From positions 30,225 to 94,224 of the IMG/VR virus record IMGVR_UViG_3300031715_000003: a DNA stretch of 64,000 bases. One strand, 5' to 3'. Every line of letters begins with the position of its first letter. Positions within the stretch are counted from its first letter, which is position 1. The notes below the pieces were generated by a model. The model saw nothing but the letters and a program-made list of their open reading frames with translations, was not told where the DNA came from and did no database searches. A program made the translations under genes and the position numbers. Positions 375 to 56,366 of the stretch are shown piece by piece. The DNA comes from a virus.

Positions 375-625
375 TCCGTGCTCTTCTCGGGGAGAACCCT
401 TTCGGATCTCTTGTTCGTGCGGATCTTCTCCAGTGCGGCCATGGCGTATTCGGCACCCGCATGGAAGGCGTCGTTGAGGATATCGGCTTCGTGCTCTGCG
501 TCGTCCAGGGACTCGTAGGACGTGCTCCCGCAGATTCCATCGGGACGGCGCACCATCCATGACTTACCCGCGCCACAATGCTTGCATCCGGGTTTATCCA
601 CAACAACGGTATAGGGCTGTCTCAT
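371..625 (-). CDS. Hypothetical protein with CxxC
   Basis: MRQPYTVVV start coupled to upstream stop; GCKHC. Confidence 0.6.
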   Translation of the reverse strand: MRQPYTVVVDKPGCKHCGAGKSWMVRRPDGICGSTSYESLDDAEHEADILNDAFHAGAEYAMAALEKIRTNKRSERVLPEKSTE

Positions 626-1077
626 TTCATCGGACTCCTCTCCATCTGAATCTCGTTTCGTGCGGCGCAGAGCCGCGTGTACACGGGGAGTTCCGCGCCG
701 TCTCCGGGTTGGTACTCCCCGCAAATCTCCGTGAACAGCGCATCGCTTCCACTCAACCACTCGAGATGCTGGCGAATCTCTTGAAACCGTTCTCCCCAGC
801 TCGAAACAGCGTATTGCAGAACCCCGGTTGTGGGCTTGCGCTGGCGGGGAGAACGGGCCTGACGGACAACGGGCTCCCTCCAGCGCTTGCGCTTGGCATC
901 CCATACGGGCTCGGGGCGGATACTGGGGTCCAGGATGCTGGCCAGCCGCCAATCCGCAGTCCACCACTCGCGCGCCTTCTTGTCCCAACGGAAGCCAGCG
1001 GATTTGACTTGTGCGTTTTGAGACATCGATGCGCACGCCACGTAGCGTTCTCCCCGGTGGATTACGGGAATCATCAC
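622..1077 (-). CDS. Hypothetical protein, DUF5710-like motif
   Basis: QVKSAGFRWDKKAREWW motif; GTGA coupling. Confidence 0.6.
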   Translation of the reverse strand: MMIPVIHRGERYVACASMSQNAQVKSAGFRWDKKAREWWTADWRLASILDPSIRPEPVWDAKRKRWREPVVRQARSPRQRKPTTGVLQYAVSSWGERFQEIRQHLEWLSGSDALFTEICGEYQPGDGAELPVYTRLCAARNEIQMERSPMK

Positions 1078-1715
1078 CCGATTGTCAGGAGTGCGGGATT
1101 CAGTACGCCGCCGCTTTCGTTGGCCTTCTCTCCCTCTGTTCCGATCTGGGTCTTTAAGTTGTGCCAACGACGAAGGGCTTCCCCATGAATCCAACATTTT
1201 GCCAGCATTGCGACAGCGGCCCCGAACATAAATCCGGTGATACCCTCGTCGTCCGCAATGTGCGATGCGTCGTTCGCACAATTCTCCAAAGTGTCGCCGT
1301 TGGAGATTCTCGCTTCCATTAAGCGCGCCCATTTATCGGCGTAGCGAACCACTCCAGATCCGTAAGGATCGGTGTTTTTGGCGACCCAGGAAGCCCATAA
1401 TTCGGGATCGCGCAACGTCAACGTGCCCGGTGCTGTCAATAGCGCTCCTTTTAAAGCGGCATCCTTGCGGCGCTGGTCCTCCTCATACTGGCGCTGTTGC
1501 TCTGCGTATTCCGGCGAAGCCAACCATTTCTGGTGGCGTGTGTCGGACTCAGAGTCGTAAAAATTGACGATCTTGTCCACGGTATCACCGGGCCAAGCTG
1601 TCAGTTCTATATCATTGAATTTAGTGGTGACGGCGCTTTTGGACTCATCCGCAAGCGCGATTATGGCTTCGGCGCATTCGCGTATATGCTGGCCTGCCTT
1701 TGATTCGTAAGTCAT
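1074..1715 (-). CDS. Conserved phage hypothetical protein
   Basis: 213 aa, AAGGAG SD, DPYG...GITGFMFGAAV...CWIHGEALRRWHN. Confidence 0.8.
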   Translation of the reverse strand: MTYESKAGQHIRECAEAIIALADESKSAVTTKFNDIELTAWPGDTVDKIVNFYDSESDTRHQKWLASPEYAEQQRQYEEDQRRKDAALKGALLTAPGTLTLRDPELWASWVAKNTDPYGSGVVRYADKWARLMEARISNGDTLENCANDASHIADDEGITGFMFGAAVAMLAKCWIHGEALRRWHNLKTQIGTEGEKANESGGVLNPALLTIG

Positions 1716-1929
1716 TCAATTCTCCTTTTTTTCTGAGCAAATTCGCTCGCTAGTGGCGTCCCACAGGAGAGCCGTCTCCCCCGAGATTGGTCTCCCCCAA
1801 AGGAACGCCCTAAGCGCGAGAATCAGCCCTACTGTCCTCGCAAGCCTGTTGGCGGGTAGCACACGGCCATGAGCCGGCGCTCCACGCGGCGCCGGATGCG
1901 CCACACGCGGATCTTACGCAATATCCACT

Positions 1930-2908: not shown

Positions 2909-3423
2909 TTCGCAACCTCCTGCGGGAGTTCGCTTTCAGCCGATTCCGTTCTCCCCGTCAGCCAGAATTTATTGCCGTCTACAATTGCTTGGCAGATGAT
3001 GCGGAGTCGGTCGCGAGCGGATGCCGGGCGTTCTTCCTCGAATGGCCACGGATATCTCATAGGGCTCCATCCTTCGAAGATCGCCTCGACGCGCGTTCGG
3101 CTTGCTTTGTCTAGTGGTAGACGCGGAAGATAGATGTTGTCCTCAATGTAGAGGTATCCATTGGTGCGGAAATTGAGGTCAATTGCGTCCTCCCGAATGG
3201 CTTGGGCAACGAGAAATGCCCCGAGCGCGCAGACGTGGCACTCCACGCCCGACAATGCGAGCTGCTGAAGGTCGATAGGGCCATCGCCCTCCCATTGCTC
3301 AACCCGCACGTAACTTATTTCCGTGAGTTCGAGTTTTACCGGCCCCTTGTAGTCGTGGTCCAGGTATCGCAGCACGTCGGCTGCAAGCATTTCGATGGTC
3401 AGTGGTTGTTGTTCTTCGGACAT
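2905..3423 (-). CDS. Hypothetical protein
   Basis: Starts after leader element E1; CHVCALG motif. Confidence 0.7.
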   Translation of the reverse strand: MSEEQQPLTIEMLAADVLRYLDHDYKGPVKLELTEISYVRVEQWEGDGPIDLQQLALSGVECHVCALGAFLVAQAIREDAIDLNFRTNGYLYIEDNIYLPRLPLDKASRTRVEAIFEGWSPMRYPWPFEEERPASARDRLRIICQAIVDGNKFWLTGRTESAESELPQEVAK

Positions 3424-3432
3424 CAGTTGTTT

Positions 3433-3501
3433 GAGCCTCCTATTGCTCACCCGAGGGGAGCACGGTCGCGGGTGTGCTCCCCTTCGGCGCGCATCAGGAA
3501 A
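3433..3501 (-). promoter_or_regulatory. Structured 5' leader element E1
   Basis: TTTCCTGATGCGC-hairpin-TGAGCAATAGGAGGCTC before ATG. Confidence 0.8.
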
Positions 3502-3844
3502 CGTCTTTCACAACACGCAAAGCGACATCGTAAAGGCCAGGATTAGCGAAGTCTCCAAGATTGGCCTCGGATGAATGCTTGTTCGTCAGATGCATTCTGG
3601 CTTCCGAGACGTGCGCGTAAACTGCGCCGGAGCCTGGCCCTTCCCGCTCAATAGTCTTATCGCGCTGGTTGACCAGCATGTGAATCCAATACGATCCGTC
3701 GGTGCAGCGCTCAATATCGATCTCCCCGCCAGGGAACTTGACTCGGAAGCTGTCGTGTTCCGGCTTGCGCGGATTGCCCTCCAATTCGACACCAACGACG
3801 CTATCCCCAAAGGATTTGATTCTCAGGTGTTCGCCTGTTTTCAT
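3494..3844 (-). CDS. Hypothetical protein
   Basis: MKTGEHL after leader E2; stop lies inside E1. Confidence 0.7.
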   Translation of the reverse strand: MKTGEHLRIKSFGDSVVGVELEGNPRKPEHDSFRVKFPGGEIDIERCTDGSYWIHMLVNQRDKTIEREGPGSGAVYAHVSEARMHLTNKHSSEANLGDFANPGLYDVALRVVKDVS

Positions 3845-3851
3845 AGTTTGT

Positions 3852-3943
3852 GAGCCTCCTATTGCTCGATGGCCGCCGTCTCCGCGCGGAAAAGATAGGA
3901 GACTTGGGAATCTTGCCCCACGGCGGCCGTCGCGCACCAGGAA
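3852..3943 (-). promoter_or_regulatory. Structured 5' leader element E2
   Basis: TTCCTGGTGCGC-longer hairpin-GAGCAATAGGAGGCTC. Confidence 0.8.
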
Positions 3944-3971
3944 GCTGGCGCGCGCCCGCATTAGCCGGGTT

Positions 3972-4719: not shown

Positions 4720-4889
4720 TAGCGTGCTCCCCCAATGACCGTCCCCTTAACCAGTGAGGCAATGTCATGGACAACGGACGTGCGCCAAATCCAGGCCAAG
4801 CCGATATTGTCGGTCCATTCATCTCCGTCCTCCCCGCAGCGGTAGTAATGGCCGTCCTCATTGACCACAAGGAAAAGATTGTGTTTCAT
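4719..4889 (-). CDS. Hypothetical 56-aa protein (not in ORF track)
   Basis: MKHNLFLVVNEDG after leader E3. Confidence 0.6.
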   Translation of the reverse strand: MKHNLFLVVNEDGHYYRCGEDGDEWTDNIGLAWIWRTSVVHDIASLVKGTVIGGAR

Positions 4890-4897
4890 GCTATTTT

Positions 4898-4958
4898 GAG
4901 CCTCCTATTGCTCATTGGGGGAGCACGTTAGCGGACTCCCCCAAGGCGCACCAGGAAA
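4898..4958 (-). promoter_or_regulatory. Structured 5' leader element E3
   Basis: TTTCCTGGTGCGC-hairpin-TGAGCAATAGGAGGCTC. Confidence 0.8.
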
Positions 4959-5343: not shown

Positions 5344-5604
5344 TCAAAGCTGAACCAGAACGCGGTTAACGTCGTTCTCGAACGTGTAGACTTGGTCGCC
5401 GTTCTCCAGACCACCTTTCATGAGCGGTCCAGCCCATCCGAACTTCCGGCAGAGCGCGATGGCGGCTCCATCGTGGGCTTTGTCGGCGCTGTCGAACTGG
5501 CTGACCTTGACGGTGACGCGGTTCTTGGGATGGCCGGTTGTGGCGGAAACCGTTGATGGTTTGGTCACGTCGGCGCCGTGGTATCGGGTAATGATTGCTT
5601 TCAT
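5344..5604 (-). CDS. Conserved phage hypothetical protein
   Basis: MKAIITRYHG...AHDGAAIALCRKFGW; after leader E4. Confidence 0.75.
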   Translation of the reverse strand: MKAIITRYHGADVTKPSTVSATTGHPKNRVTVKVSQFDSADKAHDGAAIALCRKFGWAGPLMKGGLENGDQVYTFENDVNRVLVQL

Positions 5605-5611
5605 TTTGTGC

Positions 5612-5676
5612 GAGCCTCCTATTGCTCAGCCAGGGGAGAAGACCGAAAGCGTTCTCCCCTGAAGCGCACTAGGAAA
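5612..5676 (-). promoter_or_regulatory. Structured 5' leader element E4
   Basis: TTTCCTAGTGCGC-hairpin-TGAGCAATAGGAGGCTC. Confidence 0.8.
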
Positions 5677-6073
5677 CCACAGGGTCGGAGTTGAAGGACC
5701 AGCGCAGCTCGGTCACTTTGCCACGGACAAAACAACGGCCGTCCTGATGGCCTGAACGAGTGGAGCCGCAATTCAGGCATTTTTCCAGTTGCCGATCTCC
5801 CGACATGGCTTCTTGAGCTTCCATAGTCAGAACCAAATGCGTCACTCCAGGCAGTGCGATATCGGCCATTGGGCAGAACACCGAATAGCTGGCGGCGAGT
5901 TTCGTCCACCCGTCCGTTACGCTAGCGGCATCGGTGTATTCCACAAATGCATCCAGCCCATCTAACCGGATTCGCAGTTTCACCTTAAATCCGTTCTGGT
6001 CCGGAAGAATACCGTGGCCTAGCAGCCGTGCGCGACGGCTTGTGCCTTGCTCCACAAATTCCCTCAAGTTCAT
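5669..6073 (-). CDS. Hypothetical protein, first gene of leftward operon
   Basis: AATAGGAG SD in CAGGG/CCCTG hairpin; CLNC...H...C. Confidence 0.7.
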   Translation of the reverse strand: MNLREFVEQGTSRRARLLGHGILPDQNGFKVKLRIRLDGLDAFVEYTDAASVTDGWTKLAASYSVFCPMADIALPGVTHLVLTMEAQEAMSGDRQLEKCLNCGSTRSGHQDGRCFVRGKVTELRWSFNSDPVVS

Positions 6074-6101
6074 TGTTTCCAGGGCTCCTATTTCCCTGTG
6101 G

Positions 6102-6138
6102 AGATAAGATACCGCTTTTTTATCCGCAGTGTCAAGAT
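6102..6138 (-). promoter_or_regulatory. Leftward early promoter
   Basis: TTGACA-N18-TATCTT; near-duplicate of 103-136. Confidence 0.75.
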
Positions 6139-6205
6139 TTATTTTTGTTCTCCCCGCAAGTTTCAGAAAATGCTACCATAAAACCGAAAGCGTTCTCCCC
6201 TTAGT

Positions 6206-6820
6206 ATGTTGGTAGCACCAGAAAACGGGCGCATTCGAGGCAAGCGAGACATCCTCAGCAACCCAGAGCGGAAATTCGCGGATGCCATTGCTCAGGGCAA
6301 ATCGAAAGAGGACGCCCTCGCAGCCGCTGGCTACAGTTCCAAGTGCGGTAAATCCCAAGCCTGGAAACTCCTTTCGCGCAAGCGCGTGATCGACCGCATT
6401 GCGGAAACCAACATCGAAATTGCCCGCCAAGTGGCCGTCTACAGCGCGCGCTCCCTTAGCGAGATCCCAAACTTGGCTGAAGTCACCCTGAATAGAACCC
6501 GTATCGTGTCTTTCCTTGTGGTGGTGGCTCAGGAAGCAAGAAAAGCCGGGCAGTATGCATCAGCGATAACTGGAATGGTTCAAGCGGCTAAAGTTTCTGG
6601 CGCTTATGTTGAGCGAACAGAGCAAGCTGTTGAGTTTCAACTGCTTGAGAAGGCAGCGGCGGGCAACATGAGCGAGTTGACGGATGATCAGGTGGAGCGG
6701 ATGACGCGGGCGCTGGAAGTGATGGCGTGGGGCTCGGATAGAGCACGCATCGAAGCCGAAAGACGGAAACAAGGCATCATAGAAGCCAGCGCGGAAGCCG
6801 TTGAAACGAAAGATAGTTAG
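6206..6820 (+). CDS. terS: Terminase small subunit
   Basis: ERKFADAIAQG...AAAGYS...AWKLL HTH pattern of TerS N-termini; TGcTACCAT extended -10 upstream. Confidence 0.75.
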   Translation: MLVAPENGRIRGKRDILSNPERKFADAIAQGKSKEDALAAAGYSSKCGKSQAWKLLSRKRVIDRIAETNIEIARQVAVYSARSLSEIPNLAEVTLNRTRIVSFLVVVAQEARKAGQYASAITGMVQAAKVSGAYVERTEQAVEFQLLEKAAAGNMSELTDDQVERMTRALEVMAWGSDRARIEAERRKQGIIEASAEAVETKDS

Positions 6821-6864
6821 ATTTCCTACGAACAATTACCTTATTTCCTTGTATAATAGGCTGC

Positions 6865-7191
6865 ATGAGAAGCCATTTGTTACAAGAAACTCTGCCAGAG
6901 ATCAAGAAGCGCGGACGCCCACAGCGTATTGTTCGATGCGACTGTGGCGACCGAATGCCCTCGTTCGAGTTCCAGCACCACTATTCAGGCTGCGATGCGT
7001 TCTGGAAAAAGCACGGCGCCGTGGAGACGGATCAGGATATTTCGGTTCGTTGTTACGTGAAGCACGGAGTCAGCCTGATGAAGTGGTGCGAGGAGAACGT
7101 TGAAGGCTGGTCCAGCGCCTCATGGCAGGAGAAAGAGGAGGTTCTGGAAGCTGAGCACGCGCGGATCGATGAGATTCAGTTCTCGTTGTGA
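6865..7191 (+). CDS. Hypothetical protein
   Basis: TATAAT just upstream; CDC...H...C. Confidence 0.55.
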   Translation: MRSHLLQETLPEIKKRGRPQRIVRCDCGDRMPSFEFQHHYSGCDAFWKKHGAVETDQDISVRCYVKHGVSLMKWCEENVEGWSSASWQEKEEVLEAEHARIDEIQFSL

Positions 7192-7232
7192 GCCGGCTTG
7201 GATCGCGCGGCGGGCCTGGCTTCCGGCTTCGG

Positions 7233-7299
7233 CCCCTCCCTTCCTTCCCGACCACCCCACCCCACAGTACCCTCGCCCCCCCCACCCCCCACCCCCCCC
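7233..7299. repeat. C-tract cluster (G-quadruplex-forming potential on minus strand)
   Basis: Multiple C4-C8 runs in an intergenic gap. Confidence 0.8.
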
Positions 7300-7380
7300 T
7301 TCGATTTAATTCACCGATCAGCACGAAGTTGATTCTGGAAAGAAGGCCACCGGCCTAAGAATCAACGATATAAAATATAG

Positions 7381-7417: not shown

Positions 7418-7981
7418 ATGGAACGGAAGAGATATTGGGCGCATGTGGATGGAGCGGGGCAAGCGGGTACGGAGTTGATCACTTCAGGGTGGGGCGAATG
7501 GATGCCGGAGGCTGGCGACATCTTCACGATCGATGGAGTCTATGGAGTGAATCCTGATGGCGAAAGCTGGACAGGACGGCTCCAGTATTTTGCGATGCAG
7601 GAAAGTCCGAAGAAACTAGCCACTAATGGTAATGCGGTTTTGACCATCGCGCCCGCGATCATCCCAAGTGGGAAGTTCAGGACGGTAACGAACTCGCCGG
7701 CGAACGGGGCACGGATTCAACCGGTTGATCCTATACTCTTTGGAAGCGACCTCCCTAAGGGGAGAACGGTTTTGAAGACTAAGGAATTGAAGGAGTTAAG
7801 GAAAGCGCTGTCACAACAGCACGGGGCGATGGCCAAGATTGCTAGGTCGCTTGGGATCTCGAGGACGGCTGTATCGTTGGTGCTGAATGGGGTGAGCAAG
7901 AGCGAGAGGGTGTTGAAGGCTTGTAAGGCAGCGGTGAGGGGAGAACGCTTTGGAAACCAAGGTCCGCGGGTGGATAATTAA
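7418..7981 (+). CDS. Coat insertion-domain paralog fused to HTH domain
   Basis: N-half aligns with the phage's own coat (GDI...GVY.VNP...TG.LQ.F...TVTNSPANGA); C-half AKIARSLGISRTAVSLVLNG. Confidence 0.8.
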   Translation: MERKRYWAHVDGAGQAGTELITSGWGEWMPEAGDIFTIDGVYGVNPDGESWTGRLQYFAMQESPKKLATNGNAVLTIAPAIIPSGKFRTVTNSPANGARIQPVDPILFGSDLPKGRTVLKTKELKELRKALSQQHGAMAKIARSLGISRTAVSLVLNGVSKSERVLKACKAAVRGERFGNQGPRVDN

Positions 7982-8501
7982 GAACCGGTCGGATGGAACT
8001 GGATCGGCGAAGTTCAGTGAGTGCGAGCGCTATCGCTACACTCTGACCAGGAGTTTTGCGCCTGGGATAGTGATGCCGCGGCACGTGAACTTCATTATGC
8101 TGAACCCGTCGACCGCCGACCATAACCAGAACGATCCGACGGTGGAGCGGTGCGAGCGCCGGGCACGCGCTTGGAGATTTGACGGGCTGACGGTGACGAA
8201 TCTATTCGCGTGGAGGGCGACCGATCCGTCTGAACTACTCAAAGTGGCGGATCCCGTCGGGCCAGACAACGATTGGAATTTAGTGCACGAGGCCAAAATG
8301 GGAGCTGATTTAGTCGTATGCGGATGGGGCGGAAATAGCCGGTTCACACGCAACAGAGCCATCCATGTCGTTAGTCTCCTGTTGAATGCGGCCGTGCCGC
8401 TGACGTATTTGCGACTGTCGCAGAGGACTGGACAGCCTTGTCATCCTCTTTACTTGCCGTACTCCGAGTTGCCTAAAGTCTGGTGGGACGAGCGCGTCTA
8501 G
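7950..8501 (+). CDS. DUF1643 family protein
   Basis: RYRYTL, MLNPSTAD, DPT, NLFAWRATDP, GPDND, CGWG motifs. Confidence 0.9.
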   Translation: METKVRGWIIKNRSDGTGSAKFSECERYRYTLTRSFAPGIVMPRHVNFIMLNPSTADHNQNDPTVERCERRARAWRFDGLTVTNLFAWRATDPSELLKVADPVGPDNDWNLVHEAKMGADLVVCGWGGNSRFTRNRAIHVVSLLLNAAVPLTYLRLSQRTGQPCHPLYLPYSELPKVWWDERV

Positions 8502-8632
8502 GGAGAACGGATTTGGCGAACAACCGGCTTCATTTCACTTTGCGGCTCATTGGCGCTATTATGGCGGGCGGCATCACGGGAGTGGTGTTGGGCTGGCTGA
8601 CCTATCGAAACTGAGGGGAGAACGATAGCGAA

Positions 8633-9025
8633 ATGATCAAAAAAATGGAACAAGCGGACGGGCAGAGTTGCTGGAATAAGGCTCATGAGGAAGAAATGGT
8701 TTTCGTGCTGCTCGAGCGCGATCTAGCCGCCCCCTATGCGATACGGGAGTGGGCCAAGAAGCGGATAGAACTTGGCAAGAACACCACGGACGATCATCAG
8801 ATCAAAGAGGCGTTGGGCGCCGCGCTCTTCATGGAGAGACGAGATAAATCCGCAGAACTTTTGCCGAACGAGGCAAAACGACATACTTGGGAGTATGTCC
8901 ATATGTCCGACGGACGGCGCGTCAAAAGATGCAGCCTCTGCTGGTGCGCCTACGAGTTTGGATACGACTTGCCCTGTACAGCAAAGCCGAAAGAGCTGCT
9001 TAGGGAGAATGAACCAGGCTGTTGA
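8633..9025 (+). CDS. Conserved phage hypothetical protein
   Basis: VFVLLERDLAAPYAIREWA motif; GAGGGGAG SD. Confidence 0.7.
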   Translation: MIKKMEQADGQSCWNKAHEEEMVFVLLERDLAAPYAIREWAKKRIELGKNTTDDHQIKEALGAALFMERRDKSAELLPNEAKRHTWEYVHMSDGRRVKRCSLCWCAYEFGYDLPCTAKPKELLRENEPGC

Positions 9026-9051
9026 CGTACTCCCCCAAAGAGGCGCATAAT
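9022..9051 (+). promoter_or_regulatory. Promoter with dispersed motif overlapping -35
   Basis: TTGACG-N18-CATAAT; GTACTCCCC at 9027-9035. Confidence 0.6.
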
Positions 9052-9067
9052 CCAATCATCACGGGCC

Positions 9068-9280
9068 ATGACGGAAGAAGAAAAGCGCGCGCTTATTGCT
9101 GAGTTTCTTAAAGCGCTCTCCCCTGATGAGCGTGCACGTGTAGTGTGCGGGGCCAGCGGGGAGAACGCTTCTGAACCCGTTAAAGAAATCCAGAAAATTC
9201 CGGATCCGCGCTACCAATATAGACCACAGATCCCGGCTGACTACACGGTGCCGCCCAAGCCGGCAGGCTGGCTGAAATGA
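9068..9280 (+). CDS. Hypothetical protein
   Basis: ORF after promoter. Confidence 0.55.
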   Translation: MTEEEKRALIAEFLKALSPDERARVVCGASGENASEPVKEIQKIPDPRYQYRPQIPADYTVPPKPAGWLK

Positions 9281-13868: not shown

Positions 13869-14138
13869 TCTGGCAAAACTGGGTTGGTCTTGGAATTGAG
13901 GCGGTGTGCGTAATGCTATTCCTCTGGAAAGAGGAAGATGGCGGGAAGCGAATTTTTTCCCTACTGCTGAACATCATTATTGCCGCTATGCTTTTGTGGA
14001 GATGAAGCCAATGGACATACCGGAACGTTGTAAGTTATGCGGCTGCAAACTAACTTTGGTGCAGGAGCATGCGGTAGATTTCGAATGCGGATCCAGATTC
14101 TACCGGGAAACGGGAAACTGGTACCGTGGTACTTCCTC

Positions 14139-14684
14139 ATGAGCCTAAAGTACCGGGAGTCCATCGTCGACCTCCACCAGGAACTCAAGTTCCCCATCGA
14201 GCAACTCAAACTGCAGAAGGATCGCGTCATTATCCGCGACCTCCAGGAAGAAGAAAAAGTCGGCTCGATCTGGATTCCCGAAGTCAGCCGTGACCAGTCG
14301 CGATTGCGCTGGGGCATCGTGGTGGCGGTTGGGCCGGGCGAAACATACATTGAGCGCGTCATTAGCCGCTACACCACGACTCCTGATGGATATCCAGAGA
14401 CCCATAGAATCCCCATCATGTGCAGCAAATGCAGGGGAGGACGCTTTGTGCGGATTCCGCCACGTCAAAGTCAGCAGGGCCTGGAACCGGGAGCCAGCCT
14501 CCCCTGCGAAAAGTGCCGGGGTACCGGTCGTGGGCGTCTTCCCCTGGACGTAAAGGTGGGGGACAAGGTACTGTACGACCGGCGCAGGGAAGCCGAGTTC
14601 TTCTGGCAAGGACAGCGCTACAACATCGTGTACGAGGAACAAGCGATAATAGGAATCTATACGGGGAGTTCGGATGGCGGTTAA
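14139..14684 (+). CDS. groES: GroES-like co-chaperonin with inserted CxxC zinc finger
   Basis: DRVII...GSIWIP...GIVVAVGPG...LDVKVGDKVLY...IIGI. Confidence 0.85.
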   Translation: MSLKYRESIVDLHQELKFPIEQLKLQKDRVIIRDLQEEEKVGSIWIPEVSRDQSRLRWGIVVAVGPGETYIERVISRYTTTPDGYPETHRIPIMCSKCRGGRFVRIPPRQSQQGLEPGASLPCEKCRGTGRGRLPLDVKVGDKVLYDRRREAEFFWQGQRYNIVYEEQAIIGIYTGSSDGG

Positions 14685-17114: not shown

Positions 17115-17677
17115 TGCGGGCGCACGACGTCTTCCACCAAAACGATGGAGAGGTCACCAAGCAGTACTACGCCGACCTCTGCAAGTTAGGACCATTGGGG
17201 GAGATCGCCGTAGCGTTGTTCCGCGCGCAGAAGCGCTCCAGCCGGGCGAAGGATTACCGGCGCGGCCGTTTCAGGAGAGCGGCCTACGATGTGAAGTCCT
17301 GGAGCATGCAACAACTCTGCGGTCTGCTGGCCCTGCACGGCGGGGAGTTCAGATGGGGCTGGAAAGAAGATCCCGATGTACTGTTCGGACAAGACGCTTC
17401 GTTCGTGCTATACGTCGATCTCCCCCAAGGATTCGGCCAAGTCTCATTTCACTCTCCCAGCCGCATGGATGGTCCAGAGTACGTGGGCGAGTGGGACGGC
17501 CATAAAGGGATGAGCGAGGAGCGCATCATTGCGTTCTGCGATTGGGTAGAAAATGGCGTGTGGGCTACCCCCGTAAAGTTGAGCGTGCCGGAGATACAGG
17601 AGCAGTATAATCAGCACCTGTCGGTGATGATCGAAACCCAGATGTCACTTCTGGAATTGAGGACCTCCGATGAATGA
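17114..17677 (+). CDS. Conserved hypothetical protein
   Basis: LFRAQKRSSRAK...VLYVDLP...QVSFH...WDG. Confidence 0.7.
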   Translation: MRAHDVFHQNDGEVTKQYYADLCKLGPLGEIAVALFRAQKRSSRAKDYRRGRFRRAAYDVKSWSMQQLCGLLALHGGEFRWGWKEDPDVLFGQDASFVLYVDLPQGFGQVSFHSPSRMDGPEYVGEWDGHKGMSEERIIAFCDWVENGVWATPVKLSVPEIQEQYNQHLSVMIETQMSLLELRTSDE

Positions 17678-18071
17678 TCCCCGCACCCGTGCTCAACGAT
17701 GCTCCGATGCCGTAGCCCGGTTCTGCGGTTCGTGGTCCTTCATCATCGTCTTCACCGTGATCGTTCTCCTCTGGATCGGCGTCAACACCCTATGGCTGAT
17801 ATTTCGTGCGGTCTTCGACCCATATCCATTCATCGCCCTGAACCTGTTCCTCACTATCATTAGCACCTTCCAGGGACCGCTCATCATGATGAGCCAGAAC
17901 CGGCAGGCAGAGCGCGAGCACGAGGCCACGCTGAAAATTTTAGAGGAGATTCATAACGCTCTGTACAGCCTTCCGCCGAGCGTTGAACGTGCGGACGTTC
18001 TCTACGGAGGACACCTTCAGGATCATCCGTCATTGCGAGCGTCCTCCCCCTCTGATAACCTGAAGCCATAA
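17670..18071 (+). CDS. DUF1003 membrane protein
   Basis: GSWSFI...FDPYPFIALNL...PLIMMSQNRQ. Confidence 0.9.
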   Translation: MNDPRTRAQRCSDAVARFCGSWSFIIVFTVIVLLWIGVNTLWLIFRAVFDPYPFIALNLFLTIISTFQGPLIMMSQNRQAEREHEATLKILEEIHNALYSLPPSVERADVLYGGHLQDHPSLRASSPSDNLKP

Positions 18072-18884: not shown

Positions 18885-19114
18885 TGGCGAGCGAACTCCC
18901 CATCTGCAAGACCTGCGGAGCATCGCTTGATGGATGCCCTGTGGTCATTACTGAGGGGAACACGTTCCACAGATTCTGGACGGACTGCCGCAGAACCAAT
19001 GAACGTCTGAGGACCAGCGCAGCCGATCTCCTCGAAGAGAACCAGCAGTTGCGCGGACTCCTAAAGGCAGCGATAAAAACCGCAGAAGACAATGACCGCC
19101 GCAGGAAGCGATAG
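18884..19114 (+). CDS. Hypothetical Zn-finger/coiled-coil protein
   Basis: GTG overlapping stop; CKTC...FH...C. Confidence 0.55.
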   Translation: MASELPICKTCGASLDGCPVVITEGNTFHRFWTDCRRTNERLRTSAADLLEENQQLRGLLKAAIKTAEDNDRRRKR

Positions 19115-20682
19115 TGGCAGCCCTCAACCAAGAATCCGTAGAGAAGAGCGCGAGCGCATTCCAAGCGGAACTAGCGCGGCGCCGGGAATCTCGCCCTGAG
19201 AACCTCACCCGCTTCAAGGAAGACCCACTGGGCTTTATCCGGTGGGATTTCCCATGGGGGAGACCTGGGCCGCTCGAACGGTTCGAAGGCCCCGACGTAT
19301 GGCAGGTGGACTTCCTCACGGAACTGGGGGAACTCATTCGGAAGCGCGAGTTCGACGGAGTCAACTCTGTTGCGCCCATCAGGATGACGCGCACTGCTGG
19401 CAAGGGCGTGGGGAAGTCGGTAATGGCCGCCTTCCTCACCAGTTTCCTTTTGAAGTGTTGGAAACTCTCCAAGGGGACCGTCACGGCCAACACCTACGTC
19501 CAACTTGAAACCAAGACGTGGGCGACCATCAGCCAGTGGCTCAGAATGTCGCGATCGTCCTCCCCCTTTGAAATTCGCGACTCCGGCGTCTACCACAGAG
19601 TGGAGCGCAAGGCGTGGTCTTGCACTCCCCAGACATCGGACGAAAAGAACAAGGAAGCGTTCGCCGGCCAGCACGCCGCCACCTCAGTACAGTACTACAT
19701 TTTTGATGAGTCCTCGGCCATAGCCGATACCATCTTCAAGGAAGCCGAGCGCGGACTTGTGGATGGTATGCCCATGATATTCGTGTTTGGGAACCCGACC
19801 AAATCCACCGGTACGTTCTTCCGTATCAATTTCGGAGACGAGAAGGAACGATGGAACCACGGCATCATCGATTCCCGAACCTGTAAGATTCCCAACAAAC
19901 AGGAACTCGAAGACACCATCAGGCTGGCCCCGGGCGGGGAGGACGATGACGACGTCCGCGTCTATATCCGCGGACTTCCGCCATTGTCGAACCCATCGAT
20001 GCAGGTCATCGATCCTCAGCGAGTCTACGACGCGCAGAAACGGACTCCCGAAGTCCTGGATGACGAACCGCTAGTGGCGGGCGTCGACCTGTCGCGCGGC
20101 GGCGGCGACCCGGCCGTCGTCCGCTTCCGCCGTGGCAATGACGCGCGTAGCATTGCGCCTCGAAAGCTTTCTCCCCAGGAGACGCGCGATTCCATGCAGG
20201 TGGTAGGGTACTTGTCTGATTTGGCGAAGCATTCCTTTGGGGGGAGGAAGGTGGCGGCGTTCTTTATTGACGGGGGCTCCATGGGCGGCCCCATCATTGA
20301 TCGTCTGCACCAGCTCGGGCTGAATCAATTCATCGAAGTGCAGTTCGGAGGCGGAGCCCCGCAGCCGGATCGCTACGCAAACATGCGGGCCTGGATGTGG
20401 TTTCAATTGGCTGAGGCGCTGGGGAGTCGGCTCGCGATTGACAAGGACCCCGTTCTGGAATTGGACTTGACGTCAGTGGCACCAGGCAGGCGCGACAAAA
20501 AGAACCGATTTGTTTTGGAATCGAAGGAATCTATGAAAGCGCGGGGATTGGCCTCCCCCAATGACGGTGATGCGCTGGCCCTCACTTACGCGCGGACGGT
20601 AGGACCGCAGCGCCCAGAGCGCATTCCACCGAAAAGGAACTACAACATCAAGCCCGAGGCTGGTTCCTGGATGGGGCTATAA
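19114..20682 (+). CDS. terL: Terminase large subunit
   Basis: Walker A AGKGVGKS, Walker B YIFDES, FGNPT, nuclease GVDLSRGGGD and SPNDGDALAL. Confidence 0.95.
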   Translation: MAALNQESVEKSASAFQAELARRRESRPENLTRFKEDPLGFIRWDFPWGRPGPLERFEGPDVWQVDFLTELGELIRKREFDGVNSVAPIRMTRTAGKGVGKSVMAAFLTSFLLKCWKLSKGTVTANTYVQLETKTWATISQWLRMSRSSSPFEIRDSGVYHRVERKAWSCTPQTSDEKNKEAFAGQHAATSVQYYIFDESSAIADTIFKEAERGLVDGMPMIFVFGNPTKSTGTFFRINFGDEKERWNHGIIDSRTCKIPNKQELEDTIRLAPGGEDDDDVRVYIRGLPPLSNPSMQVIDPQRVYDAQKRTPEVLDDEPLVAGVDLSRGGGDPAVVRFRRGNDARSIAPRKLSPQETRDSMQVVGYLSDLAKHSFGGRKVAAFFIDGGSMGGPIIDRLHQLGLNQFIEVQFGGGAPQPDRYANMRAWMWFQLAEALGSRLAIDKDPVLELDLTSVAPGRRDKKNRFVLESKESMKARGLASPNDGDALALTYARTVGPQRPERIPPKRNYNIKPEAGSWMGL

Positions 20683-20723: not shown

Positions 20724-20762
20724 TGGGGGGAGTACGGCGACAGACGTTCTCCCCCCGTTTTT
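20724..20762. terminator. Hairpin built from two copies of the dispersed motif; ends terL and RNA H
   Basis: GGGGGGAGTACG...CGTTCTCCCCCC-GTTTTT. Confidence 0.6.
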
Positions 20763-25183: not shown

Positions 25184-27418
25184 ATGGATCCAAACTCCGT
25201 CACGGCGATGTCGCCGGCGCAGGTCCATTCGTGGCCTGTGCCGATGAATCCCCAATCCTATTCGGGCCAAATTTTTACCGACGCCGACGCCGAAGACGCG
25301 TTCCTCAAAGAAGCGCTGGAGCGTTTCAAAACCGCCGAAGACGCCGAACGCAAGCTCCGCGAAGAGATGGAGGAAGACCATCGCTTTGCCTGCGGAACCC
25401 AGTGGCCCCAAACCATCCAAGCACAGCGCCATGCCCAGGATCGACCCACCCTCTCGATCAACCGCGTCCCTGAATTCGTCTCCCACGCCGTAAATAACCT
25501 TCGTCAGAACCGGCCGATGATCAAGATCGTCCCAGTGGGGGACGGTGCCACCACCGACATCGCCAACCTTCGGCAGGGGCTGGTCCGCCACATCCAGCAG
25601 AAATCCAAGGCGGAGACAGTTTTTGACGAAACGGCCCACATGATGTTCGAAATGGGGTTGTCGTGGATCCGCGTGGTGGCCGATTGGGCCAATCCTGAAT
25701 CTTTCGATCAGGAACTCTTTATCCGCTGGATCCGCAATCCCTTTACGGTCTACTGGGACCCGTTCTGCACGCAGCCGGACTGGTCCGACATGAAGTGGCT
25801 CTTCATCATCGAGGACCTTACCAAAGCGGAATTCCAGACACGCTTTGGGGAAGACGCACTAGCGATGAGTTGGCCCACCACGGAAAGCGGAAACTCCACT
25901 CCCTCGTGGTTCCCGGAGGGCAAGATTCGGATTGCCGAGTACTTCCGGGTCAAGATCGTGGAGGACAAGCTCTGCCAGCTTGAGGACAAGACCACGCGGC
26001 TATTCTCGGAACTCCCCAAAGGCATGTATTTCGTGGCCGAGGTAGAGAACGGCAAACCCGGCGAACTCGGACTTTTTGAAGAAGAGACGAAAGCGTATGT
26101 CGGCAAAGCTCGCGAGACCAATGTACCAGAGGTCTGGCACTACCTGATGAGCGCCCGCAAGGTGCTGTCGAAGACGAGGTGGTTAGGGTCGCGCATTCCC
26201 GTTCTCCCCTGCATTGGACACCAGACGGAATTTGAAGGCGAACTCAGCGTGGAGGGCATGGTGCGGTGGGCACGGGAACCGCAGCGCATGTACAACTACA
26301 TGTACTCCTCCTTTGTGGAAGCGGTGGCGCTTACGCCCAAGGCGCCGTTCATCGCGGAGGTGGATCAGATCCCGGATGGCAATGCAGAAGAGTGGGAGAA
26401 GGCGAACCAAAAGCCGGTTGCCGTCCTGCGATACAAGGCCAGGTCAGAAGGCGGCCAACTTCTTCCTCCCCCCATGCGGCAACCCGCCACTCCCGATATC
26501 GCGGCGTTTAGCGCCGGGCTGCAGATGTCGGATGCCAACCTCAAAGCCGTCTTCCGAATCTACGATGCTTCGCTTGGACAGCGGGGCCCCCAGGAGTCTG
26601 GGCTTGCGATCAATGCCCGCAAGGTGGAGTCCGATACCGGGATTTTCAACTGGGGCGATAACTTCCTGAGGTGCCTCCACAACGTCGGCTGGGTCCTGAA
26701 TGAACTCCTACCGTTCTACTACAACAGCCCGGGGAAGGTGATCCGCATCCTCCAGGATGATGACTCCCGCAAGGAAGTCGTAATGAACCAAGCATTCCTC
26801 GAACAGGGACAGAAAAGGATTTACGATCTCGAACAACAGGGGGAGTACGGAGTAGATATTTCGACCGGGCCATCCGTCCAGACGCTGCGGCAGGAGAAGG
26901 TCAAGGGCATGATCGAGTTTTTCCAACTGTACCCTGCAGGTCTCCAAGCCTGCGCCCATGTCCTGGTAAAAGAATTCGATTTCCCTGGAGCGGAGAAGAT
27001 TTCGGCGCAACTCGAGAAGCTTCTCCCACCGGCCCTGCAGACGCCCGATCCGGACTCCCCGCCTGATCCCAATCAACTTCAATCGCAGATCGGGATACTG
27101 ACGCAGCAGAACCAGCAACTATTGGCGGCCCTCAAGGAAGCGAGCGACAAATTCAACCTCGAAGCCATGAAGCAGTTGCACGCCGATTGGCGCAACCAGC
27201 AGACCCAGGAAGTGCAATTGGCACTGGGGCTGAGCCGCACGGGCTCCGAGGAAATCAAGTTTTTATTCGACCGGATGTTCAGCGAGATGGAGCAACTGCG
27301 CCAGCAAGTGGCGGCAGGCTCTCCGGGAACTCCGGCGACGCCGGGAGTGAACTCCCCTCCGGCGACTCCGACTTTACCTCCAACGGCGGGAGGGCAGACG
27401 CCGTCCGTGGGTCCCTGA
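25184..27418 (+). CDS. Portal protein, P22 gp1-like
   Basis: QWP...RPTLSINR...EPQRMYNY...PKAPF...ESGLAINAR...ISTGPS. Confidence 0.93.
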   Translation: MDPNSVTAMSPAQVHSWPVPMNPQSYSGQIFTDADAEDAFLKEALERFKTAEDAERKLREEMEEDHRFACGTQWPQTIQAQRHAQDRPTLSINRVPEFVSHAVNNLRQNRPMIKIVPVGDGATTDIANLRQGLVRHIQQKSKAETVFDETAHMMFEMGLSWIRVVADWANPESFDQELFIRWIRNPFTVYWDPFCTQPDWSDMKWLFIIEDLTKAEFQTRFGEDALAMSWPTTESGNSTPSWFPEGKIRIAEYFRVKIVEDKLCQLEDKTTRLFSELPKGMYFVAEVENGKPGELGLFEEETKAYVGKARETNVPEVWHYLMSARKVLSKTRWLGSRIPVLPCIGHQTEFEGELSVEGMVRWAREPQRMYNYMYSSFVEAVALTPKAPFIAEVDQIPDGNAEEWEKANQKPVAVLRYKARSEGGQLLPPPMRQPATPDIAAFSAGLQMSDANLKAVFRIYDASLGQRGPQESGLAINARKVESDTGIFNWGDNFLRCLHNVGWVLNELLPFYYNSPGKVIRILQDDDSRKEVVMNQAFLEQGQKRIYDLEQQGEYGVDISTGPSVQTLRQEKVKGMIEFFQLYPAGLQACAHVLVKEFDFPGAEKISAQLEKLLPPALQTPDPDSPPDPNQLQSQIGILTQQNQQLLAALKEASDKFNLEAMKQLHADWRNQQTQEVQLALGLSRTGSEEIKFLFDRMFSEMEQLRQQVAAGSPGTPATPGVNSPPATPTLPPTAGGQTPSVGP

Positions 27419-30016: not shown

Positions 30017-30886
30017 ATGAAAACCTTTAGACTGATCGCTCTCTTGTCTCTGGCCAGCGCCATTGGCTCTGCCCAATTGAACGTGACATCGACCACGCTC
30101 GCGGCTGCCGTTACGTCGGCCAGTTGTCCGGCGGCTGGCTGCACCGTGACGCTTACCAGCGCCACTGGTGTCGTGGCCCAAGGTCCCAACAACCAAATCA
30201 ATACCGTGCTCTACGTGGATCGCGAACTGATGTGGGTCACCAACTTCATCAGCGGCACCACTTACGGAGTGCAACGCGGCAAAAACCAAACGCGCCCGTG
30301 GACTCACTCCAGTGGCGCGACCGTCTACCTCGGACCTCCCACCAACAACTTCCTCGCTAACAATGGGACTTCGGCGGAGACTTGGGGGAGTTGCGTGGCG
30401 ACCAACGAATACAGTCTCCCCAAGATCTATGTCACAACCGGAGACATCTTCCAGTGCTACAACGGTGCGAATGGAGGGAATTGGTTCTTGGTCGGGAGTG
30501 GCACCGGGGTGACGGTAGGGAAGTCTCTTTCGGCCTTCTGCACCGGAACGGTCGGTAGCGCCGAGACTGAATTCCTCAACGACGCGGCCTGCTCTGGAGC
30601 CACCGCAAACCTCGCGAAAAACGTAGTCGTAACCGGTGGAACGCTGGCAAACCTTAGGGTTTACAGCACTGCGGTCGCCGTCGGAGGAACCAACAAGGAC
30701 GTGATGACCGTTTTCAAGAACGGCAGCGCCACCACCATCACCTGTACGATTGCGGCTTCGGCCGCGACGTGCTCTGACTCGGGTCATTCCGTCATGACGG
30801 TACCGGGTGACGTCATATCGTTCCAATTCGTGACCGCCACTTCCGATACCGCCGCCAATATGGTGGCCTCAGTCGGTCTGTACTGA
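30017..30886 (+). CDS. Putative capsid decoration protein with Sec signal peptide
   Basis: MKTFRLIALLSLASAIGSA-Q; TTLAAAVT, VDRELM, VQRG; Cys pairs. Confidence 0.75.
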   Translation: MKTFRLIALLSLASAIGSAQLNVTSTTLAAAVTSASCPAAGCTVTLTSATGVVAQGPNNQINTVLYVDRELMWVTNFISGTTYGVQRGKNQTRPWTHSSGATVYLGPPTNNFLANNGTSAETWGSCVATNEYSLPKIYVTTGDIFQCYNGANGGNWFLVGSGTGVTVGKSLSAFCTGTVGSAETEFLNDAACSGATANLAKNVVVTGGTLANLRVYSTAVAVGGTNKDVMTVFKNGSATTITCTIAASAATCSDSGHSVMTVPGDVISFQFVTATSDTAANMVASVGLY

Positions 30887-30898: not shown

Positions 30899-30932
30899 CA
30901 GGGGGAAGACGCTTTCGAGCGTTCTCCCCCTG
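30899..30932 (+). terminator. Hairpin containing dispersed motif
   Basis: CAGGGGGAA...TTCTCCCCCTG; similar to E4 inner stem. Confidence 0.45.
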
Positions 30933-51971: not shown

Positions 51972-51974
51972 CAT

Positions 51975-52277: not shown

Positions 52278-52322
52278 GGTTCTTTATCTCCCCAAAACTA
52301 CAGTAAAATGGTCTACATATTC

Positions 52323-52399: not shown

Positions 52400-52516
52400 C
52401 GGATTTAAACGAAGACTGGCATTTATGTTGTAGAATCGTAGTCGTAAGCGTAAGGCCAAAGGTAGGGGAAGCGTCGTGAGACGCACTCCCCGCCATCCCG
52501 CAAGGGAGGAGGCACG

Positions 52517-54943: not shown

Positions 54944-55986
54944 TGCAGATGAGGAGATCCATTACCCTAGCGTTGGCAGTTGGGCTTGCGGCCTACGCCC
55001 AGTACGTCCCTGTCCCATTTACCACCACCAGTTGTCTGGCGATCTCCCCGCCTGGCCCTGGCTGCGGGACCGGAACCAACACTATATTCCTGACATCCGC
55101 CAGCGGCACCTGGACGGTTCCGACCTGCTGGAACAATTCCAACAACTCGATTGAGGGAATTGGAGGAGGAGGAGGAGGTAATGGCGGTGGCTCTCCCGGC
55201 GTAGCGGGCGGAGGAGGAGGTGGGGAGTACGCCAAAGTCGTCAACCTCGCGCTCACGATAGGAGCCTCCATTCCCTACACGGTGGGGGCAGGAGGTGCCG
55301 GGGGAAACTCTGCCGGCAGCAACGGGGCCAACGGAGGCGCGACGTCTTTCAACACTACGACCCTCGTGGCACACGGCGGGGGCGGCGCCACCTCGTCTGC
55401 AGCGGGAGCAGGAGGAACTGGCGGCACCGGAACCACACTGCATAACGGCGGCTCCGGGGGAACAGCCGGGACCCACAGCGCTTTCTCCGGCGGCGGAGGC
55501 GCGGGCGGACCCAACGGTACGGGAGCGACAGGTGGCCCCTCCAATACTGTCGCCGTAGAAGCTGGAGCTGGCGGTGGAGGCGGTTCGGGAGGAGGGATGG
55601 CCGGCGGCGCTCCGTCCGCGAATAATGGAGGGGCTGGTGGTGCCAACTTCTCTGGAAGTGTGGCAGGTGGGGCTGGAGAGACCAGCGGCGGAGCGGCTGG
55701 AAACGGAGGGGGCGACGTCAACGGGGCCTCTGGGGGCGGTGGAGGCGGAGCCACATTTCTGATGCCTGGCAAGGGAGGATCTGGAAGAGAATGGGGCGCG
55801 GCCGGATCAGGCGGTGGCGGAGGCGGCGGCGGCGGAGCCAATTTCTTCGGGTCAGCCACTGGCGGCTCTGGCGGGTGTTTCGGCGGCGGAGGCGGATCCG
55901 GTTCATACGATAACGTGGACGGGGTTATGCCCGCCCCGGGAGGACCAGGCGCGCCTGGTTTGCTCGTAATAAAGTACACGAATTAG
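54943..55986 (+). CDS. Glycine-rich tail-associated protein with signal peptide
   Basis: Leader ending AYA-Q; GTWTVP...IGGGGGG...YTVGAGG...GLLVIKY. Confidence 0.8.
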   Translation: MQMRRSITLALAVGLAAYAQYVPVPFTTTSCLAISPPGPGCGTGTNTIFLTSASGTWTVPTCWNNSNNSIEGIGGGGGGNGGGSPGVAGGGGGGEYAKVVNLALTIGASIPYTVGAGGAGGNSAGSNGANGGATSFNTTTLVAHGGGGATSSAAGAGGTGGTGTTLHNGGSGGTAGTHSAFSGGGGAGGPNGTGATGGPSNTVAVEAGAGGGGGSGGGMAGGAPSANNGGAGGANFSGSVAGGAGETSGGAAGNGGGDVNGASGGGGGGATFLMPGKGGSGREWGAAGSGGGGGGGGGANFFGSATGGSGGCFGGGGGSGSYDNVDGVMPAPGGPGAPGLLVIKYTN

Positions 55987-55997
55987 AAGGAGAAAAG

Positions 55998-56366
55998 TTG
56001 AAACAGTTATTGTTCGTTTTGATGGCCGTGGCGGGATTCTCCCAGGAGTCTGGGGAGACCGCTCCAAAGCCAGAGGCCAAAAAGGAATACCTACTGACCA
56101 AAGAGGAATCGCTAACGGTGAAGCTCGATATCGCGCAGATCCAACTCCTCAATGAGAAATACAAGATTGATGACTACAACAAGGAAATAAAGCCCTGGAG
56201 CGCGGAACAGGAAGATGTCATCACGAAAGCCTGCATGAAGGTAGGGGTCGCCAAGGATAAGATCCGGAGCGACTGTGGGGTCTCGTTGGGGGCGAAGGAT
56301 CAGGCCGGAAACGAACTCCCCGCGAAGGTGTGGAAGATCGAGAAGGTGACGGCTCCGGCCAAATAA
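55998..56366 (+). CDS. Secreted helical protein (possible fibre chaperone)
   Basis: Leader ending GFS-Q; one Cys pair. Confidence 0.7.
   Translation: MKQLLFVLMAVAGFSQESGETAPKPEAKKEYLLTKEESLTVKLDIAQIQLLNEKYKIDDYNKEIKPWSAEQEDVITKACMKVGVAKDKIRSDCGVSLGAKDQAGNELPAKVWKIEKVTAPAK

Follow-up and report, generated by a model that had tools for sequence, protein, structure and literature searches.

What keeps one short DNA word scattered over the genome of a phage, on both strands and for the most part inside genes? The question is raised by the final 64 kb (64,000 nucleotides, hereafter the window) of the 94,224-bp IMG/VR record IMGVR_UViG_3300031715_000003, a soil-phage genome with a CheckV completeness of 98%. 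A preliminary description of the window, made from its letters, had singled out a motif, GTTCTCCCC in its exact form and GWNCTCCCC in a relaxed one, as over-represented and had proposed that it is a selected protein-binding site. Our analysis shows that the word is held in place by selection acting on the DNA itself, irrespective of the direction of the genes in which it lies, and that it is missing from a compositionally foreign block of the same genome. The best explanation that we can offer, and offer tentatively, is a site for a phage-encoded DNA-binding protein. Positions are those of the window unless genome coordinates are stated.

The word and its excess over chance

On recounting, the figures of the preliminary description proved close to the mark. 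The window holds 31 exact copies of GTTCTCCCC (20 on the plus and 11 on the minus strand; about 31 had been claimed) where fewer than one is expected (dinucleotide shuffles give 0.84 ± 0.87 and never more than 3), and 85 copies of GWNCTCCCC (about 80 had been claimed, with about 7 expected) against an expectation of 6.4 ± 2.5. The first copy in the window stands at 389 and the last GWNCTCCCC at 56313-56321, and the whole genome carries 42 exact copies of GTTCTCCCC. The unit, however, is not the 9-mer that had been described. Alignment of all GGGGAG instances shows an asymmetric unit of about 17 nt with the consensus GGGGAG-WW-CG-c-T-y-k-c-G-R, that is, GGGGAG followed by two A/T-rich positions, CG and a weaker tail, and the best-scoring copies read GGGGAGAACGCTTTCGG. 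Its information content is about 16 bits, the same as that of an 8-mer. An iterated weight matrix (sites of at least 12 bits) returns 153 sites per 94-kb genome, 112 of them inside the window.

This excess is not a by-product of the proteins encoded or of base composition. When synonymous codons were shuffled within genes, the coding sequences of the motif-rich core of the genome (delimited below) were expected to hold 2.6 ± 1.1 exact 9-mers and 12.2 ± 2.5 matrix hits, as against the 26 and 97 observed. A codon-preserving shuffle from whose pool the motif's own codons had been excised gave an expectation of 3.6 for GGGGAGnnCG in coding sequence, where 89 are present, and under a third-order Markov model the top 10-mer, with 34 copies for 0.63 expected, reaches z = 42. 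The enrichment thus outlasts both the codon-preserving and the higher-order nulls, the check on which the preliminary description had staked its claim.

These results also bear on a trivial origin of the excess in codon usage, in a frequently encoded peptide or in a chimeric assembly. Two observations lean that way: the most-used frames are sense frame 0 (G-E-N/F/Y) and antisense V/E-L-P, and the block that lacks the motif lies at both ends of the linear contig. Against a codon or peptide origin stand the shuffle just cited, the use of all three frames and both strands, and the intergenic position of both top-scoring copies, while a chimera would require two false joins and yet the gene order from tail to fibre runs smoothly. 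An artefact of this kind is hardly credible.

The variants of the word are informative as well. One-mismatch variants are 1.7- to 3.9-fold enriched at positions 0, 1, 5, 8 and 9 and at or below expectation at the central G-G-A. Such graded enrichment of near-cognate words around an indispensable central GGA fits a protein recognition site. The strong depletion of near-cognates that is typical of a conversion-type drive was not seen in the one-mismatch counts. DNA-level selection maintains the word.

Distribution and orientation along the genome

The word divides the genome into two parts:

389-56640, both strands: window part of the motif-rich domain (12,098-86,864 in genome coordinates as a whole), with 111 of the window's 112 matrix sites (at least 12 bits)
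56700-64000 together with genome 1-12,098, about 19.5 kb in total: motif-free, compositionally foreign tail-fibre block, with one weak hit of 14.8 bits at 58621

Within the motif-rich domain, each 5 kb contains 12-19 sites in the early and middle genes and 6-7 in the late ones. The copies are densest in the first 11 kb, as had been described, with 30 of the 85 GWNCTCCCC copies lying within the first 11.4 kb. On a crude gene map, in genome coordinates, genes run on the plus strand from 1 to 8.5 kb, on the minus strand from 8.6 to 36.3 kb and on the plus strand from 36.4 kb to the end; once small same-strand open reading frames (ORFs) are added to the map, the coding share of the genome comes to 93%. 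On this improved map the motif-rich core has 205 GGGGAG hexamers, of which 174 (85%) fall inside genes, in agreement with the earlier remark that copies also occur within coding sequence.

Orientation is indifferent to transcription. The in-gene hexamers split into 87 sense and 87 antisense copies, and the matrix sites into 74 sense and 79 antisense, with all three reading frames used. The downstream consensus is the same in both orientations: in the sense and antisense in-gene copies C+8 is present in 74-77%, G+9 in 59-62%, T+11 in 48-58% and G+15 in 52%. Relative to the codon shuffle, copies in each orientation are enriched 5.5- to 11-fold in the left early, the right early/middle and the late sections alike. 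The equal numbers of sense and antisense copies, together with their shared flanking consensus, argue that duplex DNA (or either strand equally) is read and not mRNA.

The spacing between sites is near exponential (coefficient of variation 1.04), and the flanking sequences are unrelated to each other; the sites are thus neither a phased array nor the trace of an inserted mobile element. The preliminary description had also reported copies as frequent at gene ends and starts. There is indeed a 1.9-fold excess within 30 nt of gene boundaries (47 sites vs 25 ± 4.6), but it takes in only 31% of the matrix sites, the remaining 69% lying more than 30 nt away from any boundary.

The motif-free tail-fibre block

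The statement that no copies follow 56.4 kb in the fibre genes also stood: the last GWNCTCCCC ends at 56321, and after 56,640 the matrix finds the single weak hit at 58,621. The motif-free zone runs past the ends of the record into genome 1-12,098, where there is no site, and in the motif-free blocks the codon-shuffle expectation and the observed count are both about zero. With motif sites masked, the tetranucleotide correlation with the core is 0.35-0.45 for the 87-94 kb and 0-5.5 kb chunks of the genome, compared to 0.83-0.94 for chunks of the core itself, and the 5.6-12 kb chunk is intermediate. The differing tetranucleotides are general ones (TATA, GTTA and AATA vs AAAA, TCGA and GAAG) and not fragments of the motif. 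Among the proteins of the block are a 1033-aa fibre-like protein, a 1448-aa protein and a 1000-aa beta-helix/Ig protein.

This foreign tetranucleotide usage fits the proposal that the absence of the word marks a swapped module. A search for homologs of the fibre proteins returned short domain matches only (6-23% coverage) and no near-identical donor, so that the support for the earlier phrase "recently swapped" is compositional.

Cost to the encoded proteins

Four copies in the genes of the portal protein and of the large terminase (terL) are instructive:

26200-26209, minus: portal copy encoding P-V-L-P (CGTTCTCCCC), where homologs have P-L-I-P, with I at the third residue in 18 of 19
26840-26849, plus: portal copy encoding G-E-Y (GGGGAGTACG), where K, R or N stands in place of E in 19 of 19 homologs
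19936-19945, plus: terL copy with the replacement S278D; the Ser is invariant in 24 of 24 homologs and the Asp here supplies the G at +9
20167-20176, minus: terL copy encoding L-S-P-Q, where the majority of homologs have I-P-G-E

The replacements in the portal protein are I341L and K/R/N554E. Pooled, 7 of 35 motif codons depart from a residue conserved in homologs, while among the remaining 1225 codons 105 do so (odds ratio 2.7, p = 0.03); the protein as a whole is roughly 55% identical, and this background has to be borne in mind. A residue that only this phage has is encoded by 8 of 35 motif codons vs 178 of 1225 others, a pooled difference that is not significant (p = 0.13). The effect on the proteins is modest: most copies appear to be fitted in by codon choice or at tolerant positions, and a few apparently override conserved residues.

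Sites at promoters, ribosome-binding sites and hairpins

A minority of copies occupies places where the word may do something further. The sites concerned are the following:

5643-5659, minus: best copy (25.2 bits), reading GGGGAGAACGCTTTCGG, which forms a hairpin with 5633-5640 downstream of the first leftward gene
6184-6200, minus: second-best copy (25.1 bits), its plus-strand end 5 nt before the small-terminase ATG (6206)
6139-6155, minus: copy found by the matrix directly upstream of the A-tract and the -35 element of a leftward promoter
6106-6135, minus: predicted leftward sigma-70-type promoter, TTGACA-N18-TATCTT, with a second copy at 107-135
7756-9176, plus: four sense copies after a stop codon (7759, 7938, 8615 and 9158) serving as ribosome-binding sites (RBS) of early rightward genes, repeat family D2
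3455-3482, unstranded: inverted pair forming a hairpin with a 10-bp stem in an early intergenic cassette, with sister hairpins at 4918-4941 and 5633-5659 (repeat family D1)
20727-20754, unstranded: hairpin made by an inverted pair immediately 3' of terL; a T-run follows
30902-30929, unstranded: hairpin of 13 bp with loop TTCG, made by an inverted pair 3' of a 289-aa gene (30017-30886); no U-tract follows

The two best copies thus flank the first leftward gene and the divergent early promoter region. The preliminary description had placed the copies at 6147 and 6192 in that region and one at 9027 over a -35 element. All three placements are confirmed: 6147 abuts the leftward -35, 6192 ends 5 nt before the ATG at 6206, and the copy at 9027 overlaps a predicted TTGACG at 9022. 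So is the presence of the word in hairpin stems, as 15 inverted pairs fold at -9 to -25 kcal/mol. Three of the motif hairpins sit in a repeated early intergenic cassette beside a canonical AGGAGG site (family D1). As for the 289-aa gene 5' of the 30902-30929 pair, it is presumed from its position to be the coat gene.

Could the word then be a signal in RNA, with sense copies acting as Shine-Dalgarno sequences and antisense CUCCCC as their anti-Shine-Dalgarno partners or as hairpin arms that gate translation or terminate or stabilise transcripts? Of the 74 sense sites, 22 have an ORF start 4-13 nt further downstream, the antisense background already being 9 of 79; GGGGAG stands within -22 to -4 of the start in 13 of 139 genes; several of the 15 folding pairs come right after genes; and the 1.9-fold enrichment within 30 nt of gene boundaries would point the same way. 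However, Shine-Dalgarno placement fits just about 13-22 sites and not the whole family, and all RNA-level uses together cover at most about 25-30% of the sites, with 69% lying away from boundaries. Nor do the hairpin pairs qualify as intrinsic terminators as a class: a T-run follows the pair at 20727-20754, and none follows the pair at 30902-30929 or the early cassettes, while terminator-like hits between 1 and 12 kb number 9 as compared to 12.4 in shuffles, i.e., there is no excess. Sites internal to the portal gene, to terL and to the gene of a 2001-aa protein have no partner within 60 nt. Above all, a strand-specific function in RNA cannot give equal numbers of sense and antisense coding copies with an identical extended consensus. 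We therefore regard an RNA-level signal as very unlikely to be the reason for the word; use as RBS and in hairpin pairs is real but minor and secondary.

A related idea, that each copy is itself a mini-hairpin (GGGAG-loop WWCG-CUYKC), was set aside, as it leaves the antisense copies unexplained; the 5' arm is invariant and permits no covariation. A scan of the whole genome at the Rfam gathering threshold gave 0 matches.

Two repeats in the early region were noted beside these sites. The leftward promoter region is duplicated, positions 103-128 and 6102-6127 being 92% identical over 26 nt at a distance of 6 kb, which suggests two leftward early promoters of one design. The early intergenic cassette is present in five copies (3417-3448, 3836-3867, 4882-4913, 5596-5627 and 6065-6096); its minus-strand reading, GAGCAATAGGAGGCTC, stands just upstream of start codons and is often preceded by a motif hairpin and GTTTCCTGGTGCGC.

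Relatives, hosts and environmental sequences

Relatives recognised by the portal protein share 45-54% identity and lie on roughly 90-kb contigs, the nearest named one coming from a Bryobacteraceae assembly. A terL-based search of IMG/VR gave a single distant locus, a portal-profile search of reference genomes no prophage relative, and blastn of 6.2 kb of the phage against the INPHARED phages no match. A tRNA search of the phage for clues to its host found none.

The preliminary description had suggested looking for the same enrichment in related phages and in candidate hosts; it was seen in none of those searched. Three distant relatives (36-50% portal identity; two complete genomes of 87.8 kb and 54.8 kb and a partial one of 28.9 kb) have no more than one copy of GGGGAGWWCG each (0 or 1 over 29-88 kb), and the closest relative that was retrieved (50% portal identity) has no GGGGAGnnCG in its 22-kb locus. 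Further, the three relatives have no other dense words of their own above z of about 10 under the Markov null that gives z = 42 here. Among candidate hosts, we counted the 10-mer GGGGAGAACG in 401 Acidobacteriota, a group picked because the nearest named relative by portal comes from Bryobacteraceae. In the genome with most copies there are about 54 in 5.7 Mb (about 10 per Mb) as compared to 34 in the 94-kb phage, and the counts in the three unpublished genomes included were unremarkable. Five other soil-phylum genomes show no enrichment of the word either. By these comparisons, the dense word appears private to this lineage and not a family trait, which is the pattern expected if reader and sites form a lineage-specific pair.

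Could it nevertheless be the signature of a host, an uptake-sequence-like or HIP1-like host word that entered the phage by shared repair or recombination biases, or by recombination with the host, and is functionless there? Its anatomy is close to that of DNA uptake sequences. Against this, in a search of 185,579 species genomes, with one match listed per stretch, the 17-mer gave 74 single hits spread over all phyla vs about 70 expected by chance, and elsewhere it yielded 66 single hits in JGI metagenomes and 3 in IMG/VR. The loci around the 17-mer hits are not motif-rich, with 0.08 copies of the core per kb as against 1.4 in the phage. Nor is the one-mismatch depletion expected of a conversion drive seen. 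A host signature, the host then being absent from the searched collections, is unlikely.

Environmental data show that the lineage has living kin. In a 2019 soil metagenome run we found about 200 short contigs, mostly 90-95% identical to the phage (window 1-20000 compared), from which it follows that close relatives of the phage live in soil. None of the differences reported from these contigs falls at a motif site. At 6671-7337 the same run shows a spike of very high depth, which has the look of a low-complexity match or of a repeat unrelated to the phage. The search of sequencing runs listed one DNA soil run with a small share of the words and no RNA run.

Four distant loci have over-represented words of other kinds. 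None is a dispersed word of the kind described here: they are cases of tandem coding repeats, of a local family of repeats or of a palindrome. In the 12-kb locus from IMGVR_UViG_3300040801_000894, the palindrome CCTCGAGG occurs 10 times throughout (20 over both strands vs 1.5 expected). In a second, from IMGVR_UViG_3300031801_000033, seven same-strand units of about 24 nt (…CGTTACCTCAGGTGGAGTTATCGT…) lie within 2.3 kb (locus positions 508-2750) and look like a local iteron-like or regulatory repeat family.

A proposed mechanism and candidate readers

Taken together, selection at the DNA level, orientation independence, the graded profile of variants, restriction to one lineage and the foreign motif-free block lead us to propose that the word is the site for a phage-encoded DNA-binding protein acting genome-wide. 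We hold this as the best explanation, at somewhat short of an even chance. Under it, a sequence-specific and most likely phage-encoded protein would read the word on duplex DNA along the whole resident genome. The required GGA within GGGGAG, the CG two bases on and the T/G-rich tail could be contacted by a monomer or by two reading heads over about 1.5 helical turns. Under selection on the DNA, genes and spacers alike would have come to carry a site roughly every 500 bp, in one orientation or the other, and some copies may later have been co-opted, those in sense before starts as RBS and the inverted pairs as hairpin arms. DNA that entered recently, such as the tail-fibre block, would have yet to acquire the word. 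Possible purposes of the binding include a "self" mark for packaging or protection, genome-wide silencing or compaction, and control of early transcription.

Two proteins encoded early on the plus strand are candidates for the reader:

6206-6820, plus: small terminase (TerS) gene, the first rightward gene; PHROG terS matches at 2.4e-8 and 1.2e-6
7445-7981 (7418 in the preliminary description, which named it as a candidate binder), plus: helix-turn-helix (HTH) protein; HTH_8 at E = 0.0015 (below the Pfam cut-off) and PHROG "HTH DNA binding protein" at 3.6e-5

The TerS assignment is supported by Terminase_2 in 28 of the 30 nearest Atlas clusters and by a sub-threshold Pfam Terminase_2 match (E = 0.019). 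This sole recognisable TerS gene lies 12 kb upstream of terL (19114-20682) and does not adjoin it, and no other TerS was found next to terL. One of the two top-scoring sites lies immediately upstream of it. Since telling phage DNA apart from other DNA is the normal task of a TerS, the protein is a natural candidate reader. A more specific version would have the word as the element of TerS or of another reader of "self" DNA, spread genome-wide instead of being confined to one pac site, so that any resident stretch is marked for packaging or protection; the spread would have come about by an uptake-sequence-like drive, in which DNA bearing the word is favoured in packaging or in being spared, and the newly acquired fibre block would as yet be unmarked. 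We think this version doubtful.

Several points weigh against a phage-encoded, genome-wide reader. The TerS and HTH assignments are weak to moderate, with neither protein tied to the word. A host factor could equally be the reader instead of a phage factor. The excess of residue replacements is modest (p = 0.03, and p = 0.13 for unique residues). To our knowledge, there is also no phage DNA-binding system with about 150 unoriented and mostly in-gene sites.

The pattern to be explained is that of one word which is written about 150 times per genome, sometimes apparently at the expense of conserved residues, which is confined to its lineage and which a block of foreign appearance lacks. Should a phage protein read it, the word would constitute a genome-wide "self" mark or a control layer not yet described, and its presence or absence would date the exchange of modules within the genome.

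Other genes of the phage

The early leftward operon carries anti-defence genes (1074-1715 and 1930-2412, minus), with a Tad4 Thoeris inhibitor domain (2e-31) and a Lar-like restriction alleviation domain (1e-8). Middle genes at 14085-14684, 7950-8501 and 17670-18071 code for a protein with a Cpn10/GroES-like domain (1e-11), a DUF1643 protein (2e-36) and a DUF1003 protein (1.6e-25), respectively. Outside the window, a DUF5131 protein (phage Gp37/Gp68 family; genome 17773-19293, minus) is interrupted by an HNH endonuclease domain, leaving two matched stretches. Also outside it, the early region contains a TnpB/IS605 OrfB gene (genome 13738-14841, minus) with the domains OrfB_IS605 (3e-22), Cas12f1-like TNB (2.5e-18) and HTH_OrfB; no TnpA was recognised near it. 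We considered the word as a guide or transposon-associated motif (TAM) target of this TnpB and rejected the idea, as no full copy lies in a guide-like position 3' of tnpB, Rfam gave nothing and the conservation is not guide-like.

Comparison with known dispersed words

The first system to be compared is that of the stoperators, the form in which the preliminary description had cast its protein-binding site. In Cluster A mycobacteriophages these are read by a monomeric phage protein with two DNA-reading domains (L5 gp71 and Bxb1 gp69; PMC6550527, PMC9283540), and they number 20-30 per genome and are oriented predominantly with transcription (PMC6550527). Like these repressor sites of 13-14 bp, the word described here, at about 17 nt, is asymmetric, dispersed over the genome and specific to its lineage, with some copies in promoters and most elsewhere. 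It differs in having about 150 sites of even orientation, 85% of them in genes, where stoperators number 20-30 per ~50-kb genome, which amounts to about four times their density. The orientation of stoperators is lacking altogether (87 sense vs 87 antisense in genes), and the three distant relatives, at 36-50% portal identity, have no dense site set of their own. Among about 70 proteins scanned (Pfam or PHROGs), many small genes lying outside the scan, no repressor, integrase or ParA/B was recognised. Of the earlier proposal, the selection is upheld at the DNA level and a protein-binding site is supported by the graded recognition-site profile, and the stoperator form is not supported.

The second is Chi. 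The word resembles Chi in its asymmetry and in an abundance that is under selection; both are read on the DNA without regard to genes, and both are found in coding sequence too. Known Chi sites are 5-8 nt long and shared with the host. In phages and hosts they are found about 0.2 times per kb, about 2.3 times as often as expected, and in some phages, namely those without RecBCD inhibitors, they are over-represented (PMC3784561). On a Chi-like reading, the word would switch a translocating nuclease-helicase, a host enzyme of the RecBCD/AddAB type or a phage exonuclease, from degradation to recombination, and so protect headful, permuted ends and aid circularisation. The asymmetry of the word, its indifference to the orientation of genes, its occurrence both inside and outside coding DNA, an information content (about 16 bits) equal to that of an 8-mer and the over-representation of Chi in some phages agree with this, as do a P22-like portal (PF16510), which is found among the recognisable genes along with the large terminase and is compatible with headful packaging, and two exonuclease-like proteins that the phage encodes. 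But here a 10-nt core lies within a unit of about 17 nt, there are about 2 sites per kb, and the excess over expectation in coding sequence is about 25-fold; density and enrichment are both about ten times those of Chi. A host Chi should, moreover, be enriched in host-like genomes, whereas the word is enriched in no bacterial genome searched: the 10-mer does not exceed about 10 per Mb in the 401 Acidobacteriota and the 17-mer is at chance. Finally, the 19.5-kb motif-free block would go unprotected. A Chi-like function is a possibility that we take seriously, while doubting it.

A third comparison concerns replication. A phage enzyme might nick one strand at the word, as in T5 and the phiKMV-like and tf/LUZ24-like phages, or a primase or primosome might start synthesis there. 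The word is asymmetric and present on both strands, and the phage encodes a DnaB helicase, a DUF1376 primosomal or initiator-like protein and HNH endonucleases, while no recognisable polymerase or primase was seen among the scanned proteins. Known nick motifs, however, number from a few to tens per genome and are often confined to one strand, primase words are of about 3 nt, and some 150 nicks would fragment the genome on denaturation. A nicking or priming word is accordingly improbable.

The start-associated sequences and their extended forms (SAS/ESAS) of Cluster K mycobacteriophages are found at gene starts only, on the sense strand, in about 10-20 copies with inverted repeats nearby. The sense copies at 7759, 7938, 8615 and 9158 and the separate GAGCAATAGGAGGCTC cassette are alike in including an RBS upstream of starts, but a system of this kind accounts for a small part of the sites here.

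In its anatomy, the word seems to resemble bacterial DNA uptake sequences most closely. The DNA uptake sequence (DUS) of Neisseria and the uptake signal sequence (USS) of Haemophilus and other Pasteurellaceae have a 9-10 nt core with a weaker flank and occur at about 1 copy per kb in both orientations, mostly in coding sequence and with terminator-like inverted pairs. The likeness extends to the core and flank, the two orientations, the location mainly in genes with an occasional amino-acid cost, the hairpin pairs and the scarcity in recently acquired DNA. The difference is that those are words of competent bacteria, accumulated through biased uptake, whereas this one is a phage word with no sharing with the genomes searched; packaging into the capsid may, as a hypothesis, be the analogue of uptake. 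We know of dispersed protein-read words in phages only as stoperators, Chi and nick motifs, all of them sparser or oriented, and we would place the word among dispersed protein-recognition sites, outside the stoperator and Chi families.

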